A model generated the notes under the pieces. The model saw only the letters and a program-made list of their open reading frames with translations. It was not told where the DNA came from and ran no database searches. From NCBI GenBank assembly GCA_021780535.1, contig JAJXYN010000009.1:75610-139609 (forward strand): a stretch of DNA of 64,000 nt, read 5' to 3'. The stretch is from a bacterium (GTDB lineage: Bacteria; Patescibacteriota; Patescibacteriia; JAGPKW01). Each line of letters starts with the position of its first letter. The stretch's first letter is position 1. The position numbers were made by a program, and so were the translations under genes. Shown in pieces: positions 5,632 to 15,202 of the stretch.

Positions 5632-8600
5632 TTAACTATTTTTTAATTTTATTAATATATTTTTCTGCATATCAATATAGAAAGGATCAACTTTTTCAGA
5701 CTCCATTCTTACTATTTCAGATTCTAGAAATGCAATTTTTGCATGTTTTTCTACTGATGTTATCATATCAAAAACTTCTGGTGTTAATTTTGTTCTTAAC
5801 TCTATTTCCTCTTTTTGTAATAATATTAATTCATCATATACTGCTTGGTCTTTTATTACAGGAGTACCATCAGGATTTGTTTTAAACATGTTAAAAGCGT
5901 TTTTTGTTAATTCTTTTATTTGTGAATCTAGTGAGTTTATTTTTTCGTATAAATTGTAATTTTGGTCTGATATTTTTACTTTTTGCAATTCTTGTAAGAA
6001 TAATAATTGTTCTCTTGGAGCCATTGATAGGTTCTTTTGATTATTCAAAGTAGATATTGTTCCTTCTAAATTTTTTATTTTATCATTAATAGATGAAGGT
6101 GAAGTATTAATACTTTCTTGGGATGTTACAGTTTGCTCTACTCCATGGCCAATAGAGTTCTTTGATTGTATGGGATTTTGTTTTATAAAGTCTGCTGGCC
6201 TATTTATTGTTTGCTGTGTTTGTATTGGAGCATTTGGTTGGTTTTGTATTTTAGTTGAATCTACTTGAAGCTTGTCATATATTTCACGGTATTGATCTTG
6301 AGATAATTTAACACCATTATTTTTTATATCAGCTGTTGGATATTTATTAAAATAAACTTCGTCAAACGATTTACCACTTTTTTTAGCTGCTATTAAATTT
6401 TCTTTGCCACCAAACAATGAATAAAAGCCACTATTTTGTTTATCAATTACTGCATTTTCATTAATAATTTCCGCTGAAGAAGCACCTTGTTTATCTGTTA
6501 TTATTTGAACATATTGCCCTGTTTTATCATCTTTTAATATTATAGCTCCATCTATTGGCGTCATAACATTGCCATTTGATTTATTAATAACAGTAAAACC
6601 TTTTGTTGTTAAATAATCTTTTATTTGGCCTTTTCCTGACTCATATATGTTAAGCACTCCTAATGCTTTATCTGTTACTTTATAATTTTCTGGTTTTAAA
6701 TATTCAATTATAGCATTACCTTTACCATCAAATTTAACAGTGCCCAATTCTCCAGAATTTATAGATCTAACAACTGCTACATCCATACCATTTTGATCAT
6801 TCATGCCAACGATTTCATATCCTTTTTCTCCTAACTGTTTACTAAAATTGTCTTTATCTATATGACCAAATAAATCTTGGATTTGAGTTGCTTGTGTTGT
6901 GCCATTATTGTCAATAACAGTATTTAATGTCCCGTCATTTACTTCTGCTTTATGAAATGTAAGTTTACTGTATGCATCTATTATTCCAACCGATCTATTG
7001 CTTGTCGCCTTATCAACAAGAATAACAGAATTTGCACCATTACTTTCTAATTGCACATCACCAGGTAGAAAAGATTTATCAGATTGTATATTTCTTAATA
7101 CTCCGGCTGTTGCTGTTGTACGCACAGATTCATCACTTGGGAGTGATTCTGAAAGAGAATTTATTTCTTTTGATAAACGAGATTTTTCTTGTAACATATC
7201 TTGATATTCTGGACGTCTTGAGTTTCCACCTGTATTATGCGCTTCTAAATCTTTTTTTAATTGTTCTAGTTGAGAGTTTAAATCTGCTATCCTTTTTTCT
7301 GTATTTATTTTTGTACTCACAACCGCCTTTACATCTGTAATTGTTTCTATTTTATTATTTATTGATACTGCATCTGCTTCTGATATTCCAGTTTCTGGCG
7401 ATACGCCTATTGCTTCCGTTGATGCAAGAGGTGCTGTTGTAGCTTTAATTTGGTTTACATCAGGGTGGGCATATGACATTGATGCTTGTTTATCAGCGCT
7501 TCCATCAAACCATTCTGGATGTTGTAATGTATTTCTTATATCTCTATCAACTTCATTTATATTTGATTTCATATAATCATCTATTTTTGTAAAATCTATA
7601 AATTTTTTACCAGATGATGGGTCTATATATGTATACTCTTTTAAATTATCCGTTAACAAACCTTTTACTGTTGATCCTCCAATTAAAATATGAGACAGCC
7701 TATCACTTCTTTCTCCCAAAGGTGATACTTTTGCATAGTGACTTGCAATTGCTGAATAAAATTCATCTATTTGGTTTTTAGATGTATCTATTTCCATAAA
7801 ATACTCTGGGGCTGTTTGTGGTGTAATTTCTTTCATTGCTGTGGCACCAATTATTTCTGTATTAATAACATGAGGCTCATGGGCTGATATATTTTCCGTT
7901 CCAACATGAGGCTCATGAGGTGTGGTAAATATATTCGGTTTTTTAACTGATGCTATTTCTATTGCTGATTGGTGATGATTAATAGCACCTAATAAAGTTC
8001 TAGAAGCAAAACCAGCACCAATAGCAGCTACCGCCATAATGCCACCCGCCATATACGATTCGCTGTTTATTTTTCTTGTTATATTTATTCTATTTTGTAT
8101 AGACAACTTTAATTCATCTATATTTCCTTTTTGCTTTAATTCTTCTGTATCGAAAGCTAGTCTATTCCCGTTATTAGAAATGTTTTCTCCTTTAATGTTT
8201 TTACCAAGACCCTTGCTTTCTCTGATATTTTTCCAAGCTGTTTTACCGCCAACAAAAGCACCAAAACCTGTTGTAGCAGTTGCAGTGGCAATGGCTACAA
8301 CAGGCAAAGCTAATACGGTCGCTAATATAGCGAACGAACCTACTGTTATAGTCTTAGCTATTGTTCCATAATTTTTCCAAAATCTTTCTAATTTCTCTTT
8401 ATTAAATCTTTTCTTCTCTAGTATAGATAATATTAATCCTATATTTTCTTCATTTATTTCTTCCAATAACTCACCATCATTTAATTTTTTTATAATTTTC
8501 TCTTGTTCTTTAGCTTTCTTTATATTTTCTTCATCTTTTTCAAATTCTTCTATTATTTTTTCGGCAACTTCTTTTTGTTTTATCAACTCTTTATATTCTT

Positions 8601-9876
8601 CCAGTTTTTTAGAAATAGAATCATATTGACTTTTTAATTTATCAATTTTTTTATCACCACCACTATAATTATTTAGAGCTTGTTCTAGTGATTCCTGATC
8701 TAAGTCTTTTTTAGCTGGGAACATTTTTCTTAAAAGATCATATTTTACTTCTTCAACATGAGACCCTATAACACCTTTTTTCATTAATAAATTTGATCCT
8801 ATTTTTTTTGTAATATTAAAAATAGCACCTCTACTAATTGTGGTAAAAATATTATCGGTGGTACCCATTAAAGATTTTCCAATTTCAAAAATATTTTGAT
8901 CTAAATATTTAACTTGATTTTTAGCTGTTAAGTATTCTTTTACACCATCATTTATTTCACCTAATTTAGATTCTTTTTTATCCAATGACTCGTCAGATGT
9001 ATTTTTTTCAGCAGTACTATCATCTCCATTTTCAACTCCTAATCTTGTTGGGGCAATTTTTTCGTTTAAATTTTCTGTTTCGGCCTCTGCTGGTTCTTTT
9101 TCAGATTCAACCCTTGATGTATCTATATTGCATTTTTTTAATAATATTTTATTTGCAACGTTTCTAAGTTGAGATTCGTTAAAACCTTTTTTATTATGTT
9201 CATTATATTTTATTAATTTTTCCATCAACATTTCTATTCTTTTCTCTACTGTTGCACCAATAAAAACATCGTCAGAAAAAATTAACTTTTTTATTGACTT
9301 AAAATCATTACTCCTCATCAATCCATCAGTTAATTTGGCTACTGATATTTTACCAGAATTTTCTTCTTGTTGTGATTCTAAATTCTCTAAAACAGGGGCA
9401 TCAACCTCTGCCACACTTCCGATCACGTTCTCTAACTCTTTCTCTAATTGTTGAAATTTTGAGAATTTCTCATTATATTCCTTACTTTGAATATCTTTAA
9501 TTTGAAGTAATTCTTCTCGCATTTGTTCTATTTCTGATTTTATTTCAGAAGCTGTTCTTAAAACTTTTGAATTAAGAATATTTTTTATTTCTTTAGGACT
9601 TTCAATTGTTTCTGGTGCTACTAACTCTGTTGTTTTTTTCTGCCCCATTTCTTCCATTAATTCTTGCCTTTGGCTTTCTGCATCTTCTTTACTTATAGAC
9701 CCATACCTTTCAGCCGTTGATATAAAAGCTAGCTTTTTTTTTAATAATCTCTCTTCCTCTGATTCTGAACTTGTTGGCATGGCTTTTTCCTTACCAAATT
9801 TATAAAAATAAAGACTCCCTCCAAAAACACTTTTTGAGATAATTTTATCTAAATTTTTAATTAGTAATATTTTCAT
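5632..9876 (-). CDS. Giant (1414 aa) coiled-coil membrane protein, function unknown
   Basis: The roughly 520-aa N-terminus is Lys/Glu-rich coiled coil. Two central hydrophobic helices are present (ILATVLALPVVAIATATATTGFGAFVGG and GGIMAVAAIGAGFASRTLLGAI). The roughly 750-aa C-terminus is Ser/Thr/Asn/Gln-rich with a HEPHV x2 repeat. No signal peptide or enzymatic motif was recognised. Confidence 0.5.
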   Translation of the reverse strand: MKILLIKNLDKIISKSVFGGSLYFYKFGKEKAMPTSSESEEERLLKKKLAFISTAERYGSISKEDAESQRQELMEEMGQKKTTELVAPETIESPKEIKNILNSKVLRTASEIKSEIEQMREELLQIKDIQSKEYNEKFSKFQQLEKELENVIGSVAEVDAPVLENLESQQEENSGKISVAKLTDGLMRSNDFKSIKKLIFSDDVFIGATVEKRIEMLMEKLIKYNEHNKKGFNESQLRNVANKILLKKCNIDTSRVESEKEPAEAETENLNEKIAPTRLGVENGDDSTAEKNTSDESLDKKESKLGEINDGVKEYLTAKNQVKYLDQNIFEIGKSLMGTTDNIFTTISRGAIFNITKKIGSNLLMKKGVIGSHVEEVKYDLLRKMFPAKKDLDQESLEQALNNYSGGDKKIDKLKSQYDSISKKLEEYKELIKQKEVAEKIIEEFEKDEENIKKAKEQEKIIKKLNDGELLEEINEENIGLILSILEKKRFNKEKLERFWKNYGTIAKTITVGSFAILATVLALPVVAIATATATTGFGAFVGGKTAWKNIRESKGLGKNIKGENISNNGNRLAFDTEELKQKGNIDELKLSIQNRINITRKINSESYMAGGIMAVAAIGAGFASRTLLGAINHHQSAIEIASVKKPNIFTTPHEPHVGTENISAHEPHVINTEIIGATAMKEITPQTAPEYFMEIDTSKNQIDEFYSAIASHYAKVSPLGERSDRLSHILIGGSTVKGLLTDNLKEYTYIDPSSGKKFIDFTKIDDYMKSNINEVDRDIRNTLQHPEWFDGSADKQASMSYAHPDVNQIKATTAPLASTEAIGVSPETGISEADAVSINNKIETITDVKAVVSTKINTEKRIADLNSQLEQLKKDLEAHNTGGNSRRPEYQDMLQEKSRLSKEINSLSESLPSDESVRTTATAGVLRNIQSDKSFLPGDVQLESNGANSVILVDKATSNRSVGIIDAYSKLTFHKAEVNDGTLNTVIDNNGTTQATQIQDLFGHIDKDNFSKQLGEKGYEIVGMNDQNGMDVAVVRSINSGELGTVKFDGKGNAIIEYLKPENYKVTDKALGVLNIYESGKGQIKDYLTTKGFTVINKSNGNVMTPIDGAIILKDDKTGQYVQIITDKQGASSAEIINENAVIDKQNSGFYSLFGGKENLIAAKKSGKSFDEVYFNKYPTADIKNNGVKLSQDQYREIYDKLQVDSTKIQNQPNAPIQTQQTINRPADFIKQNPIQSKNSIGHGVEQTVTSQESINTSPSSINDKIKNLEGTISTLNNQKNLSMAPREQLLFLQELQKVKISDQNYNLYEKINSLDSQIKELTKNAFNMFKTNPDGTPVIKDQAVYDELILLQKEEIELRTKLTPEVFDMITSVEKHAKIAFLESEIVRMESEKVDPFYIDMQKNILIKLKNS

Positions 9877-9880
9877 ATTA

Positions 9881-10072
9881 TTATTTTATTTTATTGAGTA
9901 TTTTTTTATATTCTATCTCCTCTTTTTTAGAAATAATAAAATCATGAATTTCTTTTAATTCTTTTTCTATTAAACTCAACTTATTCATATCATCTTTATA
10001 TTTTTCATAAAGAGATTTGATTTGTTGTTTTACATTTTCTATATCTTGTTCTCCTTTATTTTTTACTTGCAT
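9881..10072 (-). CDS. Small coiled-coil protein (63 aa)
   Basis: Lys/Glu-rich ORF located 4 nt upstream of the giant protein gene on the same strand. Confidence 0.35.
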   Translation of the reverse strand: MQVKNKGEQDIENVKQQIKSLYEKYKDDMNKLSLIEKELKEIHDFIISKKEEIEYKKILNKIK

Positions 10073-10382
10073 TATATTCTTCTATTAATTCTTCTCTTAT
10101 TTTTAAAGCTTCTTCTTTTGACATGTCTTCATAGTTTGGTACCATATCCATTATAAATTTCAATATTGATAGTTGGTTTTCCTTATTTTCTTCTGAGAAT
10201 TTTGATAATGCAGATTTTTGATCTTCTGTTAGTATTTCATTTAATCTAAGCATTATTCTTTCTTGAAGTAATTCTTGGAGAGATTGTATTATAACAGATT
10301 TATCAGCTTCTGAAGCATCCCCCATACCCAATTCAACAAATATATCCATTTGTTGATCTTGTCCATTTAAAGTTTCTGACAT
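10056..10382 (-). CDS. Hypothetical acidic protein (108 aa)
   Basis: The ORF overlaps the next gene by 17 nt, which suggests an operon with the giant protein. No motif recognised. Confidence 0.4.
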   Translation of the reverse strand: MSETLNGQDQQMDIFVELGMGDASEADKSVIIQSLQELLQERIMLRLNEILTEDQKSALSKFSEENKENQLSILKFIMDMVPNYEDMSKEEALKIREELIEEYNASKK

Positions 10383-10555: not shown

Positions 10556-11668
10556 ATGAATTTATCAAGTACTGAACAAATTTTTAAAATAATAGAAGAA
10601 AAAAAATCTGCTCTTATTTTGTTGTCAAAAAATTATAATGGAGATGCTTTGTCAGCGTCTTTGGTATTATCTTTATATTTGAAAAAATATGGCAAAAAAA
10701 CTTGTATTGCTATTGAAAATATTGAAAATATTGATAAAAAATATAAATTTTTGCCAGAAATAGACTTAATATCTAACAAGGTTTTTGACCCAAGTAAATT
10801 TACTATTAGAATCAATACGGATAGAGTTAAGGCAAAAGAACTTAGCTATGAGCCAAAAGAAAACGCTATAGAAGTGTATATTACATCAGTTACCGAAAAT
10901 GGATTTAAAAAAGAAGATGTTGAAATTATAGAAGAAAATGTTAGTTTTGATTTTGTTATCTCTATCGGAGCTAAATCAAAAAATGATATTGGTCTATATA
11001 GTAAAAATCTTAAATTTTTGGACAATAAAGATATTATTAATATTGATATAAATCAAAAAAATGAAAATTTTGGAACTATAAATTGTATAATGCAAAATCA
11101 AAAAACATTATCTGAAACTATTTTTGATATTATTAGTTTTAATAAAAGTGAATTAATAGATGAAAATATAGCAAATTGTATTTTGACTGGAATTATGGAT
11201 AAAACAAATGGATTAAAAGCTTTTGACATATCATCAAATACTCTATCAAATGCTTCAAACTTAATAGATTTGGGTGCTGATAAGGATTTAATTTCTAGAA
11301 ATATATTTAAAAATAAAAATTTGGATGAAATAAAAACATCAGCGAATGTTATTGCTAATATTAAGAGTTTTGATAATAATATTGTTTATTCTGTAAATGA
11401 AAATTTGAATGATAATTTTAATATAAAATCATTATTTACTGATAATTTATCTTATATTAATGATGTGGAGATATTCGTAATGTTTAATAAAAAAAATGAT
11501 ATTATTTATTCTCAAATAATAACATCTTCAAAATATTCAGCTGATGAAATAACTTCTGATTTTAAATCTATTGGAGATAATGAGATTGCCCAGTTTGCTA
11601 TTGCTAGTACAGATATAGAGAAAGTGGTTGAAATTGTTTTAAATAAAATTAAGAACAAAATAAAATAA
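10556..11668 (+). CDS. DHH-family (NrnA-like) protein with degenerate catalytic motifs
   Basis: The N-terminal LLSKNYNGDALSASLVLSLYLKKYGKK aligns with the NrnA HxxPDGDAxGS region, but His/Asp are replaced. No DHH or GGGH motif was found. Confidence 0.45.
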   Translation: MNLSSTEQIFKIIEEKKSALILLSKNYNGDALSASLVLSLYLKKYGKKTCIAIENIENIDKKYKFLPEIDLISNKVFDPSKFTIRINTDRVKAKELSYEPKENAIEVYITSVTENGFKKEDVEIIEENVSFDFVISIGAKSKNDIGLYSKNLKFLDNKDIINIDINQKNENFGTINCIMQNQKTLSETIFDIISFNKSELIDENIANCILTGIMDKTNGLKAFDISSNTLSNASNLIDLGADKDLISRNIFKNKNLDEIKTSANVIANIKSFDNNIVYSVNENLNDNFNIKSLFTDNLSYINDVEIFVMFNKKNDIIYSQIITSSKYSADEITSDFKSIGDNEIAQFAIASTDIEKVVEIVLNKIKNKIK

Positions 11669-11691
11669 CCGGATTAATCGGTTGTTTTTTA
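11665..11691 (+). terminator. Intrinsic terminator after the DHH-like gene
   Basis: Hairpin aaccg-gattaat-cggtt plus gtttttt lies immediately after the stop codon. Confidence 0.6.
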
Positions 11692-11692
11692 T

Positions 11693-12180
11693 TCGTTCGT
11701 TTATTAAGGCGCCGACTTCATCGGCATAAGTTAATAATACTCACTTCGTTCGTTTATTAACTAAAAAAAAGAAGGGTCAATATCCTCGGTGGAGAATCTA
11801 CATAGATTAATTAACTTTTCTCTACGAATTGCTAATTAGTCTGTGTAGATTCTCCAAAATTGTTTTGTGAGGCATGACCCAAAATTTGTTTGAAAACTAG
11901 ACCGATTCGTGGACACATACTCCAGATTTACCCCAGAAAGTCACTCAATTAAGAGATATTCCTCTGGATCATGAAATAAGACCCTTTTTGTTTTTATTGT
12001 GACATATCACACAAGCGTGTAATACATCTTTTAATGGAATCAGTGAAGTTTTATGATAAAGGCTAAAATGTTTTTCTTAACTTTTTATCATAACTACATT
12101 ATAGCATTTTTTTGACTTTATGTCCATTTGATGTGAATAGTTTCATAATAAATAGCCAATTTAGGCTATTTTTTTAGAAC
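11693..12180. ncRNA. Candidate structured non-coding RNA locus (unclassified)
   Basis: No ORF of 60 aa or more. The region is GC-enriched relative to its surroundings. It contains a nested stem set: gggtca..cctc..[ggagaatctacatag...ctgtgtagattctcc]..gagg..tgaccc. It also contains a gccga-cttca-tcggc hairpin, a ttcgttcgtttattaa direct repeat, an internal gaccc+T-run, and a terminal terminator aatagcc-aattta-ggctatt+T7 near 12150-12178. Confidence 0.35.
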
Positions 12181-12194
12181 ACATTTTTTATACA

Positions 12195-12230
12195 ATATAA
12201 TAAAAATAGACCAACCATATTGTTGATCTA
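12195..12230 (-). terminator. Intrinsic terminator after the 95-aa gene
   Basis: On the minus strand, tagatcaacaatatggttggtcta forms a 9-bp stem followed by a T-run. Confidence 0.5.
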
Positions 12231-12248
12231 TTGCACAAATGTAAAAAA

Positions 12249-12536
12249 TTATTTCTTTTTTATTTTAGTATTAGACTTGTGAGTTCTTGGAAATTTATAC
12301 CTTTCTATAATTCTTTTTTCATTTTCAGAATATAAATCGGCTAGAAAAAAATCAACCGACCCACTTTTAATGCTATTTTCAAAATATTCAAGAAGATTTG
12401 AACTAATTTCAAATGACCAAATTTTATGACCTCTATATTCTATATTTTTTAAATCTGATAAACAACCCTCACTCACCAACGAAGTCCTAATAGCTTCACT
12501 GGTAATTTTATTCTTTGGGTGTAAAAAATACCTCAT
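12249..12536 (-). CDS. Hypothetical protein (95 aa)
   Basis: ORF translationally coupled to the upstream S51 peptidase gene (ATG overlaps the stop). Confidence 0.4.
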   Translation of the reverse strand: MRYFLHPKNKITSEAIRTSLVSEGCLSDLKNIEYRGHKIWSFEISSNLLEYFENSIKSGSVDFFLADLYSENEKRIIERYKFPRTHKSNTKIKKK

Positions 12537-14621: not shown

Positions 14622-14697
14622 TGGTGGACCGTAGGAGATTCGAACTCCTGACCTCCACGGTGCAAGCGTGGCGCTCTACCAACTAAGCTAACGGCCC
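14622..14697 (-). tRNA. tRNA-Ala (anticodon UGC)
   Basis: 76-nt cloverleaf on the minus strand (gggccgttagc...cttgcac...ggttcgaatcc...ggtccacca). G3:U70 Ala identity pair. Encoded CCA. Confidence 0.9.
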
Positions 14698-15125: not shown

Positions 15126-15202
15126 GGGTGTGTAGCTCAGCTGGTTAGAGCACGACTCTTATAAAGTCGGGGTCGATGGTTCAAGTCCATTCACACCCAC
15201 CA
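15126..15202 (+). tRNA. tRNA-Ile (anticodon UAU)
   Basis: 77-nt cloverleaf. Anticodon stem cgact/agtcg with loop cttataa. Ile-like D/T arms (tagctcagctggttagagc, ggttcaagtcc). Encoded CCA. Confidence 0.75.

Follow-up and report, generated by a model that had tools for sequence, protein, structure and literature searches.

A probable gene for a folded non-coding RNA between two convergent genes of a Patescibacteria genome

The window analysed here is a stretch of 64,000 nucleotides (nt) of contig JAJXYN010000009.1 (assembly GCA_021780535.1, Patescibacteriota lineage JAGPKW01; positions 75,610 to 139,609 of the forward strand), and all coordinates below refer to it. Its GC content is 25.4%. A DHH-family gene (10556-11668, plus strand, assigned by a weak Pfam DHH match) and a convergent gene for a protein of 95 amino acids (aa; 12249-12536, minus strand) are separated by a gap which had been put forward, from the sequence alone, as a candidate for an unclassified structured RNA (the original prediction). 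Our analysis indicates that this gap is very probably a stand-alone gene for a folded non-coding RNA (ncRNA), here called type A, which would be transcribed from the minus strand and would be about 329 nt long. The features of the locus, beginning with the RNA and ending with its flanks, are as follows.

12091 to 11763, minus strand: predicted type A transcript, 329 nt (from the spacing between P1 and the -10 box, the U-tract and the fold z-score)
12098-12126, minus strand: predicted sigma-70-type promoter, TGGACA-17-TGcTATAAT (match to consensus, and invariance)
12053-12091, minus strand: P1, 5'-terminal hairpin, AUGAUAAA...UUUAUCAU (single-sequence folds)
11892-12052, minus strand: core three-way junction (covariance model R1 and covariation)
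12037-12052 with 11895-11910, minus strand: P2, core helix
12001-12028, minus strand: P3 hairpin, core helix
11985-12000, minus strand: J3/4, A-rich single strand of 16 nt, ACAAUAAAAACAAAAA (unpaired in the consensus structure)
11911-11984, minus strand: P4-P6 irregular hairpin, core helix
11774-11880, minus strand: P7, 3' domain of about 107 nt (helices parsed by hand, and covariation)
12151-12175, no strand assigned: AATAGCC/GGCTATT hairpin, preceded by an A-tract and followed by T7 (same register in all copies)
12175-12195, no strand assigned: conserved block TAGAACACATTTTTTATACAA (minus strand ...AAAAAATGTGTTCTA), at about -85 to -105 from the predicted start site
11692-11760, no strand assigned: insertion or duplication, two 16-nt direct repeats flanking 37 bp with a GCCGA/TCGGC hairpin
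11662-11688, plus strand: terminator of the DHH gene (terminator consensus scan of both strands)
12232-12205, minus strand: terminator of the 95-aa gene (same scan)

Seventeen homologues of the DHH protein were found at E<=1e-10, and related contigs carry the labels Patescibacteria or Saccharibacteria. The DNA around homologues of 75, 70, 61, 58, 58, 45, 45, 44 and 30% identity was compared with the window, a further homologue of 55% contributing gene coordinates only. All homologues down to 44-45% identity show, 3' of the DHH gene, a gap in which no gene is called over 445-634 nt, the contigs of both 58% homologues (L015, L036) ending within it. This gap is kept though the gene that follows it varies, encoding a nucleotide kinase, an acetyltransferase or a protein of 99 or 102 aa; after the DHH gene of the 30% homologue (L035), no such gap was found. 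The gaps of the relatives align to approximately 11763-12197 of the window, which is the extent of the conserved element and replaces the boundaries of 11693 and 12180 proposed originally. In two relatives (L007 and L010), the RNA region shares 86% nucleotide identity with the window as against 78-79% for the DHH gene; the RNA is conserved as much as or more than its neighbour, contrary to the earlier suggestion of a decayed foreign fragment. That the element is constantly linked to the DHH gene may have a functional meaning, or may simply reflect how little space both terminators leave.

The locus is free of open reading frames (ORFs), as had been claimed: none exceeds 35 codons under translation table 11, and none exceeds 64 codons when UGA is read as sense (table 4). 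Conservation of short AUG frames within the RNA was looked for across the copies and was not found, and taken together these results exclude a coding reading. The GC enrichment noted originally is real, if modest, at 32.5% for the RNA relative to 25.4% for the window, a value reached by 7% of equal-sized windows. The sequence folds with a z-score of -7.4 on the minus strand (11755-12095) and of -5.5 on the plus strand (11690-12180), with no shuffled sequence folding as well as the real one on either strand.

Single-sequence folds of eight close full-length copies agree with each other. In positions of the predicted RNA, P1 occupies 1-39, P2 is formed by 40-55 and 182-197, P3 spans 64-91, J3/4 spans 92-107 and P4-P6 covers 108-181; a short linker leads to P7 at 212-318, and this is followed by U8. 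The 5' hairpin P1 is predicted in the nine full-length copies with the exception of the distant copy L013, whose 5' end is unpaired. Covariance model R1, which covers the core from P2 to P6, recovers all close type A copies (E values of 1e-33 to 1e-21) as well as two distant ones, L034 (3e-9) and L013 (4e-5), where additional hairpins enlarge the RNA around the core to about 480 nt. J3/4 is the most conserved single-stranded element of the RNA: it is nearly invariant (AAYAAAAAYAAAA) and is conserved in all 12 sequences of the core alignment, distant ones included. The GACCC and T-rich tract that was singled out originally as an internal GACCC+T10 element does exist on the plus strand at 11980-11996, and corresponds to the complement of the 5' strand of P4 together with the invariant J3/4. 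A long-range pairing of AAAAAAAAGAAGGGTC with GACCCTTTTTGTTTTTA was considered and dropped: it is not kept in L012 or L013, and GGGTC pairs instead with the nearby GACCC, with covariation.

When the 12 core sequences are fitted to the R1 structure, 96.3% of the 571 pair cells are paired, and double changes occur in 26 of the 50 pairs. The covariation score is 0.408, a value reached by none of 500 shuffles (0.182 +/- 0.013 in shuffled alignments), and drops to 0.07-0.14 when the partners are slid by 1-3 columns. The same alignment distinguishes the two strands. In the minus-strand reading, the core cells comprise 438 Watson-Crick pairs, 112 G.U pairs, 8 A.C cells and 13 others, and the proportion paired falls from 96.3% to 78.1% when the plus strand is read. 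Three substitutions inside the RNA separate the window from L006, of the same species, and all three are exchanges between A-U and G.U on the minus strand; likewise, P1 of L012 contains a U.G pair on the minus strand, which would be C.A on the plus strand. The original prediction had described a plus-strand unit of about 500 nt, read from left to right; the evidence favours instead a minus-strand RNA of about 329 nt.

Two stems, of 5-6 bp and of 4 bp, close the 3' domain P7, which further contains an asymmetric internal loop and a hairpin of some 25 bp. The nested stems described originally were recovered: gggtca at 11774-11779 pairs with tgaccc at 11875-11880, and cctc at 11784-11787 with gagg at 11869-11872. 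Inside them lies an inverted repeat with arms of 31 nt (11790-11820 and 11826-11856) that are 84% complementary. The palindromic elements which had been assigned to a hairpin loop are indeed present in the sequence, but make up the upper helix of this hairpin of about 25 bp. The closing stems were misaligned by MAFFT, and the helices were therefore parsed by hand, each segment being checked against the real sequences. Double changes are seen in 15 of 32 pairs, no shuffle out of 500 reaches the observed covariation, and the basal 18 bp show no one-sided changes, varying by double substitution alone. Because P7 is almost purely Watson-Crick (89%), it can pair on both strands.

Immediately upstream of P1 on the minus strand, a -35 box TGGACA (12126-12121), a spacer of 17 nt and an extended -10 box TGcTATAAT (12106-12098) match 11 of 12 consensus positions in addition to the TG, which makes this the best promoter match in the region. 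It is also the most conserved block of the element, reading ATTATAGCATTTTTTTGACTTT on the plus strand and TGGACA-17 nt-TGcTATAAT on the minus strand, with spacer and -10 box invariant across the copies of type A and of two related types, B and C, described below. In every copy, a purine exactly 7 nt downstream of the -10 box is the first nucleotide of P1, and P7 is followed by UUCU7-8. On the basis of this spacing and of the U-tract, the transcript is predicted to run from an A at 12091 (+1) to a 3' end inside the U8 tract at 11763-11770.

A scan of 185,579 species genomes with a 21-mer word from the promoter returned 11 contigs, comprising one full RNA (L019), three related cassettes (L018, L022, L025) and seven contigs of unrelated bacteria. 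In six of these seven, a -35-like hexamer lies 16-17 nt upstream on the same strand, and one match, on a Virgibacillus contig, sits ahead of a tRNA gene. The seven contigs represent either bacterial promoters or chance matches, and the accompanying hexamers support the block as a minus-strand promoter. The stretch 12104-12126, which includes the 17-nt spacer, reads TGGACATAAAGTCAAAAAAATGC on the minus strand; spacer and -10 box occur verbatim in contigs of unrelated phyla, and Clostridia contig L024 carries TTGACATAAAGTCAAAAAAATGCTATAAT. Such identity between unrelated phyla may be due to convergence or chance. An inverted repeat, TTGAC-N5-GTCAA, is formed by the -35 box and the GTCAA of the spacer, and could be an operator.

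About 30 nt upstream of the -35 box lies the 12151-12175 hairpin, in which AATAGCC/GGCTATT is replaced by AATGGCT/AGCCATT in L012, a compensatory change. The hairpin with its T7 had been interpreted as the terminator of the RNA itself; the structure is there, but it lies upstream of the RNA promoter and not at the 3' end of the RNA, and we read it as a bidirectional terminator or insulator. The adjacent block TAGAACACATTTTTTATACAA is nearly invariant among type A and type B cassettes and may be the binding site of a regulator. In L013, this position shows on its minus strand a GAACA-N7-TGTTC inverted repeat.

Both flanking genes carry a hairpin/T-run terminator of their own, as originally stated, and the scan that placed these also scored a terminator-like site on the minus strand at 11662-11688, which may act as a back-up stop for type A RNA. 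In L029, the stop codon of the DHH gene runs directly into P7 without a separate terminator, P7 being the sole hairpin after the gene, and a U-rich run follows P7 on the plus strand. P7 and the 12151-12175 hairpin, both flanked by an A-tract and a T-tract, resemble bidirectional terminators in this respect, although P7, with about 107 nt, conserved internal loops and a conserved mismatch, goes far beyond what a terminator needs. We suggest that P7 is probably also a bidirectional terminator which the RNA has in common with the convergent DHH gene, and that this additional part in stopping the DHH transcript would oblige it to pair on both strands.

Between the DHH terminator and the U-tract of the RNA, the 16-nt direct repeat TTCGTTCGTTTATTAA occurs at 11692-11707 and 11745-11760, on either side of the GCCGA...TCGGC hairpin. 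This 53-bp tandem duplication or insertion is present in the window and in contigs of the same species, and is absent from those type A loci of other species whose sequence includes the DHH-proximal end (L007, L010, L012, L013/L014, L015, L029, L032, L034 and L036). The direct repeat and hairpin listed in the original prediction are thus real features, but constitute a species-specific insertion outside the RNA.

A scan of metagenome contigs in which the promoter and, after it, the AGAACA block were sought returned seven loci, and two contigs, Ga0209373_10000011 (581,814 bp) and Ga0302292_1000378, carry two copies each, one being type A beside the DHH gene and the other a paralogue, type B. 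The latter was found in L027 (3250-3700), L028, L031 and L025 (4540-5060), between an ELP3-like radical-SAM gene and glyA. Type B is about 333-343 nt long. It shares with type A the upstream cassette, which extends over about 105 nt in an identical register, and resembles it in the 5' hairpin and in the plan of the 3' domain (GC closing stem, long AU-rich hairpin, U7); its multi-branched core is different, and three mutually complementary 26-nt segments were observed in it. Type C, from another Patescibacteria genome (L018 = L022 = L030; about 420 nt downstream of the shared promoter), has the promoter, P1 and the motif AACAAAAACAAAAA in common with type A, and little else; it contains a CCCATAG / CTATGGG / CCCATAG triple that could form alternative hairpins. 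Neither type is linked to a DHH gene. Searching the type B and type C loci with R1 gave no match to the type A core at E<=1, so that these cores are not detectably homologous to that of type A.

Other features of the window lie further away. An S51 peptidase gene comes after the 95-aa gene. Upstream of the DHH gene, a gene trio (5632-10382, minus strand) that is conserved in relatives encodes a very large, repetitive, low-complexity protein (1414 aa in the window, 960-1768 aa in its counterparts from relatives), another of 59-70 aa and a third with the domain DUF5663, which is encoded near the locus. A tRNA-Ile gene with anticodon UAU (15126-15202, plus strand) stands beside a tRNA-Ala(UGC) gene (14622-14697, minus strand), and the same divergent pair was found in relatives L033 and L034. 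A UAU tRNA-Ile is uncommon in bacteria, in which AUA is usually decoded by a lysidine-modified CAU tRNA.

All 4227 families of Rfam 15 were compared with the whole window at gathering thresholds, and with the locus and its relatives at E<=10. Six tRNAs, all outside the locus, were the sole matches in the window at gathering thresholds, and at E<=10 the locus, seven relatives, type B and distant type A gave only chance matches to microRNA, small nucleolar RNA and small RNA (sRNA) families, the microRNA-like ones at the locus falling on the long hairpin. ARAGORN located six tRNAs elsewhere in the window, and no tRNA or transfer-messenger RNA (tmRNA) at the locus or at the RNA genes of nine related loci. 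The earlier remark that no tmRNA, RNase P, signal recognition particle (SRP), 6S or riboswitch consensus is recognisable holds in the Rfam scan, and so does its proposal of an unclassified structured RNA distinct from a 3' untranslated region (UTR), given a conserved element with compensatory base changes and no Rfam match. Phage records contained no match to the locus, a promoter scan of viral contigs gave two chance matches inside coding regions and nothing else, and no description of this RNA was found in the literature searched on ncRNA families of Patescibacteria.

With a predicted promoter and terminator of its own, no ORF and a structure backed by covariation, the locus has the general properties of a stand-alone ncRNA gene, and type A is a new RNA family within this known general kind of structured bacterial RNAs. 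It is closest in character to raiA-motif RNA, OLE and ROOL, which like it are stand-alone genes in long intergenic regions, richer in GC than their surroundings, made of several covarying helices, without an ORF and restricted to certain lineages. The Rfam 15 covariance models for OLE, ROOL, GOLLD, HEARO and raiA gave no match, however. Type A also differs from OLE, ROOL and raiA in belonging to Patescibacteria, in its length of 329 nt, which is smaller than OLE or ROOL, and in having a paralogue that shares its cassette, 5' hairpin and 3' layout around a different core.

The least improbable of the alternatives, although we do judge it improbable, is a housekeeping RNA (RNase P RNA, 6S RNA, tmRNA or SRP RNA) so extremely divergent or reduced that covariance models miss it at 25% GC. 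A strong, insulated and invariant promoter and fully helical ends would fit such an RNA, as would the presence in each genome of two paralogous genes whose length of about 330 nt falls within the range of rnpB and ssrA. The core topology also recalls the P2-P3-P4 junction of RNase P, with the 5' strand of P2, the P3 hairpin, a purine-rich J3/4 and a short invariant helix which encloses the remainder of the domain just before the 3' strand of P2. In addition, the 3' end of E. coli M1 RNA, GUCCACGA...AUCGGUCAGUUUC, resembles GUCCACGAAUCGGUCUAGUUUUC here; this is a lead, and not a test. Nevertheless, the RNase P, 6S, tmRNA and SRP models find no match at E<=10 in the window, in a distant copy or in type B, and the 5' and 3' ends of type A do not pair with each other to form a closing stem.

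Taken singly, each of these RNAs was rejected. Inspection for RNase P RNA showed neither CR-I (GGAAAGUCC) nor CR-V (ACAGAAnnnGGCUUA); the two ends do not combine into a P1, the 5' end being a local hairpin and the 3' end lying in P7, and only about 70 nt are found inside the 'P4-like' helix. Models RF00010, RF00011 and RF00373 gave no match at E<=10 on window positions 11500-12400, on L013 (5100-5660) or on L027 (type B), and RNase P is kept as a remote lead only. 6S RNA is a rod of about 150-200 nt with a closing stem formed from both ends, a central bubble and a terminal hairpin. Type A resembles 6S and Ms1 RNA as a predicted stable structured RNA with a strong promoter and a paralogue (compare 6S-1 and 6S-2 in Bacillus), but is branched around a covariation-backed three-way junction instead of forming a rod with a central bubble, and has no RF00013 match at E<=10. 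For tmRNA, neither ARAGORN nor RF00023 gave a match, and no acceptor, T-arm and CCA domain or tag reading frame is present. For SRP RNA, RF00169 and RF01854 gave no match at E<=10, and the domain IV motif of helix 8 with its GNAR tetraloop was not seen.

Some observations weigh against type A as a minus-strand gene. Its promoter, start site and terminator are assigned by their likeness to consensus, and the covariation comes from 12 distinct sequences in two clades, in a core alignment that was fitted to the model; since the members of each clade share ancestry, the counts of covariation are inflated. In P7, moreover, pairing is slightly better on the plus strand (95%) than on the minus strand (92%), the minus strand having 20 A.C cells against 8 G.U cells, and position 13 of the hairpin (11803/11843) is C.A in 10 of 10 sequences, corresponding to a conserved G.U on the plus strand. 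The pairs around position 13 covary while the C.A stays, perhaps as a protonated wobble, as a feature for recognition or as the mark of a plus-sense function. In view of the A.C excess and the conserved C.A, P7 or its DNA may have a function in the plus sense as well.

These features of P7 also speak for a second alternative, a plus-strand element that would either belong to the DHH gene, as its structured 3' UTR or as a product of read-through, or be an sRNA ending at the 12151-12175 terminator. The plus strand folds well too (z = -5.5), T7 follows the 12151-12175 hairpin on that strand, and the DHH gene of L029 has no terminator of its own before P7. We nonetheless hold this reading to be very improbable: 112 of the 571 core pair cells become A.C mismatches on the plus strand, in most copies the DHH terminator is separated from P7 by only some 15 nt, in which there is no promoter, the invariant 29-nt block is a promoter on the minus strand only, and types B and C share the cassette without a DHH gene nearby.

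More improbable still is the absence of any RNA gene, the locus being in that case a DNA-level element (an inverted repeat bound by protein, or the relic of a mobile element), a pseudogene or a decayed foreign fragment. The inverted repeat of P7, long and almost purely Watson-Crick, might act as a DNA site, and the adjacent 53-bp duplication points to local instability. Against this stand several separate helices kept by compensatory changes, the lack of reading frames and phage matches, and a stable position beside the DHH gene in relatives down to 45% protein identity, as well as the G.U asymmetry between strands, which would be meaningless for double-stranded DNA. Group I introns that lie within tRNA genes of Patescibacteria can escape standard tools such as RF00028 and ARAGORN (PMC13011429), and two genes of about 330 nt per genome fit the size of a tRNA or other gene split by a divergent intron of this kind, but this last alternative is very unlikely when P1 directly follows the promoter, P7 and a U-tract form the end, neither end shows an acceptor stem, D-arm, T-arm or CCA, no P3-P9 core or G-binding helix is apparent, and RF00028 and the tRNA models have no match at E<=10.

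For the minus-strand gene, the following scheme can be proposed. Transcription would start at about 12091 from the extended -10 sigma-70 promoter, which the bidirectional 12151-12175 hairpin would shield from the upstream gene, and would stop after P7 at the U8 tract (about 11763). Both ends of the RNA would be helical (P1 and P7), with the three-way junction of P2, P3 and P4-P6 between them, joined by AAYAAAAAYAAAA. The helical ends, the insulator and a promoter close to consensus point to a stable RNA that would be produced at a high level. A structured RNA of 329 nt with such a promoter, and with a paralogue behind the same cassette, may well be abundant and have a role maintained by the cell.

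As to this role, the A-rich J3/4 would be the most plausible place for a protein (or another RNA) to make contact, and type A might be a trans-acting protein-binding RNA that serves as ribonucleoprotein scaffold or decoy. We favour this function, although with low confidence; the remaining probability is taken up by a catalytic or structural role and by the alternatives set out above. The sequence of J3/4, AAC AAA AAC AAA AAG, consists of five A-R-N triplets, a type of motif bound by the distal face of Hfq, and in this, as in a length of about 330-400 nt and the existence of paralogues, type A recalls the Hfq-binding RNAs CrcZ and CrcY. It has one such motif, however, and not six, and the CrcZ model scored 16 bits on type B relative to a threshold of 95, which is noise. 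That type B does not have the A-rich junction strand is a point against a protein-binding role.

On present evidence, type A does not represent a new mechanism, and orphan structured RNAs are found regularly. It does offer a well-delimited target, with ends, strand, a covariance model and 12 homologues defined, and illustrates that reading an intergenic region from left to right can misassign strand, terminator and boundaries even where the call of an ncRNA is right. Patescibacteria, also known as the candidate phyla radiation (CPR), account for a large share of bacterial diversity and have tiny genomes with few recognisable regulators, and their ncRNAs are little known; type A was found only in a small group of these bacteria. 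It is tempting to speculate, although we consider it rather unlikely, that types A, B and C belong to a new modular class of Patescibacteria RNAs, in which a shared cassette, clamp and 3' hairpin domain would hold cores with specific jobs that replace lost regulators or enzymes; in one version, type A would derive from the junction of the RNase P catalytic domain, repurposed. If this were true, each core would be a new ribonucleoprotein or ribozyme in these reduced genomes.

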